NCBI RefSeq assembly: GCF_044324875.1
Contig: NZ_CP172189.1
Length of the DNA: 14,825 nt
DNA from: Escherichia coli
GTDB lineage: Bacteria > Pseudomonadota > Gammaproteobacteria > Enterobacterales > Enterobacteriaceae
Direction: 5' to 3' (one strand)
Positions within the stretch are counted from its first letter, which is position 1, and each line of letters starts with the position of its first letter. The notes under the pieces are model-generated. The model ran no database searches and had not been told where the DNA came from. It saw only the letters and a program-made list of their open reading frames with translations. Positions 4,390 through 4,467 of this stretch are shown here, in pieces. Made by a program: the position numbers and the translations under genes.

Positions 4390-4467
4390 AGCGTGTTTCT
4401 GGAACACAGAACAACAATGCACATTGTAGCCAACAAATTCACACCAGAAACACGCTCTGTTTTTTAA
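4390..4467. other. Long inverted repeat (13-bp arms, ~41-nt loop) followed by a T-run; candidate structured RNA or bidirectional terminator
   Basis: agcgtgtttctgg (4390-4402) pairs with ccagaaacacgct (4444-4456), followed by ctgtttttt; an A-run (4382-4388) precedes it. The loop holds a second near-palindrome, caatgcacattg. Confidence 0.4.

Follow-up and report, generated by a model that had tools for sequence, protein, structure and literature searches.

In ColE1, the promoter Pcer gives rise to Rcd, an RNA of ~70 nt that forms a single stem-loop (PMC4393325, PMC2831885, PMC5935869). Its expression is switched on in plasmid dimers, and Rcd binds tryptophanase and causes a rise in indole (PMC4393325). 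It is transcribed in the direction of RNAII (PMC2831885) from a promoter with a spacer of 15 bp (PMC5935869). Recombination at oriT and cer has been proposed as a route of Col plasmid evolution (PMC8683028). Cer-type Xer sites, which include ColE1 cer, ckr and mrs, were recognized in this work by a core of 28-30 bp, made up of a XerC arm, a central region of 6-8 bp and a XerD arm (TTATGKTAAAT), and by an ArgR box (GCATA-N3-ATKCA) located ~35 bp upstream of the inverted repeat. Here we compare these sites with HP1, a long hairpin at 4390-4456 of a 14,825-nt stretch of E. coli DNA (contig NZ_CP172189.1), referred to below as the window. HP1 is most likely a variation on a known plasmid element and no new kind of signal.

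The arms of HP1, AGCGTGTTTCTGG (4390-4402) and CCAGAAACACGCT (4444-4456), are complementary at 13 of 13 positions, seven of the pairs being G-C, and enclose a loop of 41 nt (4403-4443) that contains the near-palindrome CAATGCACATTG (4415-4426). Six A residues at 4382-4387 supply a U6 run directly after the stem on the - strand, and six T residues at 4460-4465 supply another on the + strand, 3 nt past the stem; once the A/T runs are included, a repeat search extends the inverted repeat to 21 nt at 86%. The preliminary description of this DNA had reported the perfect arms, the loop of about 41 nt, the near-palindrome and the flanking runs, all of which can be read directly from the sequence, and had proposed folding against shuffled controls as a check. 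The folded RNA reaches -25 kcal/mol on the + strand (z -5.07) and -30 kcal/mol on the - strand (z -4.49), with none of 200 shuffles doing as well on either strand, and the corresponding DNA folds have z values of -4.5 and -4.3. A search of the window for perfect inverted repeats with arms of 13 bp or more around a loop of 3-60 nt gave two; dinucleotide shuffles yielded 0.05 per window, and 13 bp was reached in 2 of 40 of them. The hairpin is real and lies beyond chance. The other repeat (643-673) has a loop of 5 nt. It falls at the 3′ end of the immunity gene (358-699), shortly ahead of position 696, where the convergent colicin gene stops, and presumably terminates transcription of both genes.

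Over its first 8.9 kb the window corresponds to the colicin E1-type plasmid pSMS35_8 (8909 bp) of E. coli SMS-3-5, with 100% identity over 4200-4800 and 99.9% over 4260-5274. The lysis, immunity and colicin genes (173-2264) are followed by the gene for the Exc2 lipoprotein and then by the genuine cer. Further along lie a fragment of an IS3-family transposase (3987-4205), a gene-free accessory block of ~1.6 kb (4230-5804), with no annotated gene, that contains HP1 and the related repeats HP2 and HP4, the mbeA and mobC genes on the - strand, and then rop and the ColE1 origin. The gene-free block is situated between the mobilisation genes and the real cer. Rfam identifies an RNAI gene on the + strand at 8919-9021, which places RNAII on the - strand. 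With two different RNAI genes of the ColE1 type (9-113 and 8919-9021, 8910 bp apart) and a length greater than that of pSMS35_8, the window seems to be the product of a fusion between two Col plasmids, with the junction in the origin region. The second ColE1-like replicon, beyond ~8910, encodes a colicin immunity protein (9341-9865) and a relaxase whose gene is truncated (12660-13451). This relaxase is interrupted by an IS21-family element (10100-12643), whose products are IstB (11645-12643) and a transposase (10225-11871) that has both an rve and a Mu-transposase C-terminal domain, and the 22-23-bp tandem repeats at 10100-10214 look like the multiple terminal repeats of the element.

The genuine cer of the window (3466-3609, - strand; nhmmer E 3e-29) has an ArgR box at 3596-3609, the Rcd inverted repeat at 3504-3582 and a XerC/XerD core at 3466-3495, which we take to be identical to the ColE1 core. 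Fourteen genuine cer-like sites with Xer cores were assembled (the window cer, those of ColJs and pHUSEC41-3, L040 and L129-L138), and in all 14 an inverted repeat lies directly upstream of the core. Ten have arms of the form GCG(C)GTTTCYGG(C/T)G ... C(C/T)(A/G)GAAA(C/T)GC, and the four ColE1-type sites have GCGATCGCGG-type arms instead. In the 12 sites aligned for a covariance model, the hairpin stem comprises 14 pairs, seven of which covary between site types. L040 is an Enterobacter locus where the family arms directly precede the Xer core GGTGCGCGTAA-TGCGGCG-TTATGGTAAAT. It was the only useful find of a loose gapped pattern scan of genome contigs, the rest being mostly chance matches across phyla, and it belongs to a large cer-like family with matches in 4114 plasmid records.

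HP1 is one of four related inverted repeats, the other three of which the preliminary description had missed. Of seven copies of the arm motif CACCRGAAACRCGCTC in the window, where 0.34 would be expected, six fall within 4389-5910 and make four inverted pairs. HP2 (4536-4597, - strand) has 16-nt arms that are 88% complementary and a loop of 30 nt, folds with z values of -4.9 and -4.2, and is preceded on the - strand by TTGCCT, a 17-nt spacer, TAGAAG and 7 nt. It aligns with HP1 through both arms and the loop motif TTTGTTG (z 3.6). HP4 (5727-5804, - strand) is a weaker member of the family, and the break in homology between the ColE1 backbone and the gene-free block falls in its arm. HP3 (5851-5909, - strand), just downstream of the mbeA stop codon, is degenerate in the window, with fold z values of 0.27 and -0.45. 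Intact copies, with fold z ~-4.4, are carried by ColJs, pHUSEC41-3 and over 200 further Col plasmids, in which the site lies between mbeA and cer. Changes in HP3 include one compensatory pair (C-G to T-A in pKP4863-3) and one wobble pair, along with two disrupted lineages; both HP2 and HP3 show signs of constraint. A deletion in pKP4863-3 fuses HP3 to the next unit. Many ColE1-like plasmids carry tandem core-less cer-type hairpins, HP3 and HP4, between the mbeA stop and the real cer (seen at L005 1445-1630, L006 1446-1629 and L146).

The family arms, GCGYGTTTCYGG and CCRGAAACRCGC, correspond to the stem that the inverted repeat forms in genuine cer-type Xer sites, a repeat that in ColE1 makes up the body of Rcd. 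HP1 shares these arms and a stem of the ~14-bp type (13-14 bp) with ColE1 cer, ckr and mrs, and the family resembles the cer/Rcd hairpin in its G+U-rich loop of 30-41 nt with a small internal hairpin and in its RNAII orientation. At the level of individual sites, the HP1 arms agree with L134 at 12 of 14 positions and with L040 at 12 of 13, and the loops are of similar length; the chance that a palindrome chosen as such would match a given 14-mer so well is ~1e-5. A covariance model, R1, built from genuine cer hairpins only, was used to search 51.7 kb. It returned the true cer of the window with 83.3 bits (E 5e-20), HP3 of ColJs and pHUSEC41-3 with 29 bits (E ~1e-5), a repeat in a Col8282-type plasmid (L007b) with 26.7 bits (E 5.6e-5), and the intact HP4 of ColJs and pHUSEC41-3 with 19-22 bits (E 1e-3 to 5e-3). 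Within the window the values were marginal for HP2 (17.3 bits, E 0.017) and for HP1 (4384-4461 on the - strand, 15.6 bits, E 0.047), and HP4 and HP3 scored 11.1 bits (E 0.77) and 10.5 bits, respectively. A match of 17.1 bits inside mbeA (7207-7261), at the same level as HP1 and HP2, is presumably spurious. Neither HP1 nor HP2 was detected by a sequence-only nhmmer profile of cer sites or by pairwise local alignment with them. A second iteration of R1 that included the orphan repeats was set aside when MAFFT misaligned the right arms. Every family match scores best on the - strand, although for HP1 the two strands differ little (15.6 bits on the - strand, 14.3 on the + strand), and the - strand loops are G+T-rich in all units, as in cer (0.76, 0.67 and 0.78, with 0.76 for HP1 and 0.78 for the true cer). 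By its best score and its G+T-rich loop, HP1 is oriented in the RNAII/oriV direction. Since its R1 values are marginal, the case for HP1 rests on the arm match, the loop length, the G+T-rich loop and the link to HP2 and HP3.

The sole Xer core in the window is that of the genuine cer on the - strand, a relaxed scan of 4201-5950 gave nothing better than shuffles, and the sole exact match to the ArgR box is likewise in the true cer, with none upstream of HP1 or HP2 on the - strand. Without a XerC/XerD core and an ArgR box, HP1 cannot act as a recombination site. In Rcd, a conserved loop sequence of ~15 nt is thought to contact the target. The genuine sites share the loop sequence TTTTCGGGTGGTTTGTT, and their conserved motif UUUUCGGGUGGUUUGUU is absent from HP1 apart from TTTGTTG (UUUGUUG in the RNA), so that HP1 is probably not a working Rcd. 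It also differs from cer in having a U6 run directly after the hairpin, which the genuine sites do not have, and in having a tandem paralogue, HP2, with which it lies in a gene-free block separate from the real cer. With a little more confidence than doubt, we regard HP1 as an orphan, core-less copy of the inverted repeat from the accessory region of cer-type Xer sites. It may be an rcd-like cassette that was left behind, or duplicated, in the recombination-prone stretch between the mobilisation genes and cer.

The preliminary description had also suggested that a stable small RNA could be formed here, and this is compatible with the sequence, because HP1 belongs to the family of Rcd hairpins and a promoter-like layout lies ahead of it on the - strand. 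This layout (4466-4492) consists of TTCCAG, a 15-nt spacer and TAAATT, followed by 7 nt to the HP1 stem. The ColE1 Pcer hexamers are TTGCAT and TAAAAT. The geometry of this putative promoter, with a 15-nt spacer to a -35-like hexamer and a -10-like hexamer placed 7 nt before the stem, is like that of Pcer. The site matches the sigma-70 consensus at 8 of 12 positions, below the 9/12 threshold of the promoter scan, and would be a weak promoter. The RNA that it might produce would be ~80 nt long, and the predicted - strand fold is a single long stem-loop of that size, with a stem of 13-14 bp, an interior loop capped by a small hairpin, and a tail of U6. The Rfam scan that had been proposed as a further check assigned HP1 to no family: RNAI, in two copies, was the only family to pass the gathering threshold in the whole window, and the best matches of a permissive search of 4150-5960 had E values of at least 0.4.

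The second suggestion of the preliminary description, termination of transcription in both directions, is also compatible with the sequence, as a U-run flanks the stem on either strand. Intrinsic terminators consist of a G+C-rich stem with a loop of 3-8 nt and a U-tract within 0-2 nt. Like bidirectional terminators of this kind, HP1 combines a stable stem with an A-run and a T-run, so that either strand reads as a hairpin followed by U6; unlike them, it has a loop of 41 nt in place of the usual 3-8 nt and a stem that is only moderately G+C-rich. Because the + strand stem is followed by a U-run as well, HP1 would be expected to stop transcription from either side. On the - strand such termination could insulate a conserved small unit downstream, from ~4350 to 4231. 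It is rather unlikely that HP1 is nothing other than a plain factor-independent bidirectional terminator, or an RNA-stabilizing hairpin, between the small units of the block, with an incidental likeness to cer. The strong stem with U-runs within 0-3 nt on both strands speaks for this explanation, as do the abundance of terminator-like hairpins in the block (10 in the terminator scan against 1.3 expected), the compensatory changes in two of its terminators (4637-4663 and 4239-4259) and the retention of the A/T runs around HP1 in the diverged variant of the block carried by IncK plasmids. However, HP1 itself is missing from the terminator scan list, since its 41-nt loop is outside the usual form of an intrinsic terminator, and its stem is lost in the IncK variant. 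Moreover, HP1 is the only one of the four repeats with U-runs after the stem on both strands, yet its arm sequence is common to genuine cer sites and to three repeats without U-runs. A plain terminator is compatible with a cer-derived origin of HP1, but leaves the shared arm sequence unexplained.

The small unit downstream of HP1 on the - strand is a conserved island (4231-4350; L007 4572-4690) that is common to three plasmid lineages at 97-100% conservation. Its putative promoter, TTGAGA, 15 nt and TACAAA, abuts the U-run of HP1, and it ends in a strong - strand terminator (4259-4239) with a stem that covaries in Col8282 plasmids and a poly-T tract that varies from 6 to 15 T. A segment of 55-60 bp comprising the terminator and its upstream sequence is present twice, at 4231-4290 and 5032-5089, as diverged inverted copies ~740 bp apart, the second of which ends in a + strand terminator (5060-5080).

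The IncK variant is the sole diverged homologue of HP1. The HP1 copy in it is 72.8% identical, compared with 95.5% for HP2 and ~80% for the block, and the islands flanking HP1 are 90-100% conserved. The arms have acquired a 1-nt indel and two mismatches and the loop a 10-nt deletion, with the result that the copy no longer forms one hairpin (z -2.0 and -1.1). Since the window version is nearer to the family consensus, the IncK copy is the decayed one; and since the stem decayed there, HP1 may be dispensable, at least in the IncK setting. The pSMS35_8-like and metagenome copies of HP1 are all identical and therefore show no sign of selection. These observations give some weight to the possibility, which we nonetheless consider doubtful, that HP1 has no function and is the decaying remnant of an earlier cer-like site or duplicated unit, kept only because the pSMS35_8 lineage is young. 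The decay of HP3 within the window points in the same direction. On the other hand, fully complementary arms with matched A6 and T6 flanks are more orderly than decay predicts, and HP2 and HP3 bear the signs of constraint described above.

Within the diverged loop of the IncK copy the inner palindrome CAATGNNCATTG is retained. Together with the recurrence of the arm sequence in all four units, which goes beyond mere pairing, this could mean that the inverted arm pairs are bound, as double-stranded DNA, by a protein of the host or the plasmid, for example PepA or FIS, as happens at cer, or some unknown regulator. Such a role is improbable. The genuine cer stem covaries between site types, ATCG/TGAT in one and TTTC/GAAA in the other, which speaks for structure over a fixed binding sequence; in addition, the gene-free block encodes no candidate regulator.

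A single-strand initiation or promoter hairpin, likened to those of plasmid leading regions, was the remaining suggestion of the preliminary description. HP1 would then load the primosome or primase, or serve as a single-strand promoter of the F type, after mobilisation or in lagging-strand synthesis. HP1 resembles such signals, for example Frpo of the F plasmid, in its size class (~70-90 nt), in the stability of its hairpin in single-stranded DNA and in its presence on a mobilisable plasmid. Going by what we take to be the orientation of the ColE1 oriT, the transferred strand is probably the + strand, and a related repeat (L007 4941-5015) lies in a Col8282-type plasmid, at a distance of ~400 bp from the putative origin. 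Such signals lie in a transfer leading region or at an origin and have a hairpin that restores -35/-10 boxes or a known primosome site. HP1, in contrast, is ~4 kb from the origin and beyond the mobilisation genes, adjoins neither oriV nor oriT, and has no -35/-10 pair in its stem. Its surroundings are the end of the mobilisation genes, the gene-free block, the IS fragment and then cer, with no leading region. The arms are already accounted for by cer-type sites, neither Rfam nor any other model supports a relation, and the literature consulted on single-strand initiation offered no sequence for comparison. This explanation is very improbable and the least supported of all.

The block in which HP1 resides is confined to plasmids and occurs in 36 of 5426 complete E. 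coli genomes, with no copy on E. coli chromosomes and no match in a phage collection. One form is carried by pSMS35_8-like Col plasmids at 99-100% identity; a second, 77-82% identical, is located between two IS3 copies on IncK2/Z conjugative plasmids. Patches are also found in the mob-to-rep intergenic region of Col8282-type plasmids, and a metagenome scan for alleles of the block recovered only three variants, all already known. In the IncK2/Z plasmids the ~1.5 kb between the IS3-family copies (L002 6001-7560) is without a credible protein gene, as in a composite transposon free of cargo genes. Several open reading frames were considered and rejected. A 128-aa "hypothetical protein" annotated in IncK plasmids (L002 6509-6895) crosses terminator hairpins and is without a Pfam match, and a 5-nt indel breaks its frame in the window. 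Neither a 63-aa + strand frame through HP1 nor a 45/34-aa - strand frame through HP2 is kept between variants, and neither has a Pfam match. An unannotated 108-aa frame (5452-5778, - strand) has an N-terminal hydrophobic stretch and no Pfam match; compared with the IncK variant it shows 12-nt and 8-nt deletions as well as 1-nt indels, and as its frame is lost there it is probably not a gene.

If HP1 is an orphan cer hairpin, then accessory hairpins of the cer type can survive and be duplicated away from working Xer sites, at the mob-distal boundary of Col plasmids where cargo is exchanged, and could serve as sequence markers of past cer-associated recombination. Annotators would be warned against taking such hairpins for new RNA genes or replication signals. 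A 1.5-kb block with no credible gene, bracketed by IS3 copies in IncK plasmids, also raises the question of what is being selected, which is a modest point about non-coding plasmid cargo. HP1 would matter more only if the block proved to be an expressed small-RNA cargo. According to this more ambitious idea, to which we give little credence, HP1 and HP2 would be expressed as Rcd-like RNAs independent of Xer and, with the other small transcripts predicted in 4230-5800, would constitute a protein-free cargo consisting entirely of small RNAs. IS3 elements would carry this cargo between Col and IncK plasmids, and it would influence either plasmid maintenance or the host, for instance by way of the tryptophanase/indole checkpoint.

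Other small features are scattered through the block. A candidate small RNA on the - strand (4631-4755), in a region that is 90-100% conserved, has a promoter at 4755-4726 (TTGATA, 18 nt, TATGAT; 10 of 12 positions) and a hairpin on its 5′ side (4700-4722). Its terminator (4663-4637) is strong, and one pair of it differs in the IncK variant by a compensatory change from C-G to T-A. The candidate RNA contains a 14-codon ORF, MCILKSVFSIKLRP, with GGAG 7 nt upstream, which is absent in the Col8282 homologue. Between HP1 and HP2 lies a 9-codon ORF on the + strand, MSGKSGRRN (4484-4513). The only two changes that set it apart from the IncK copy, TCT/TCG and GGA/GGC, are both synonymous, and a GAGGA Shine-Dalgarno sequence is present in that copy. 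At the edge of the block, GCCCTGAAGGACCGGGTTTTACGGCG... (4198-4240) matches a short repeat found at 8443 places in 4810 genomes, or roughly two per E. coli chromosome. A Col8282 plasmid has a MITE-like insert of 310 bp that is flanked by this repeat in inverted orientation and holds another cer-type hairpin.
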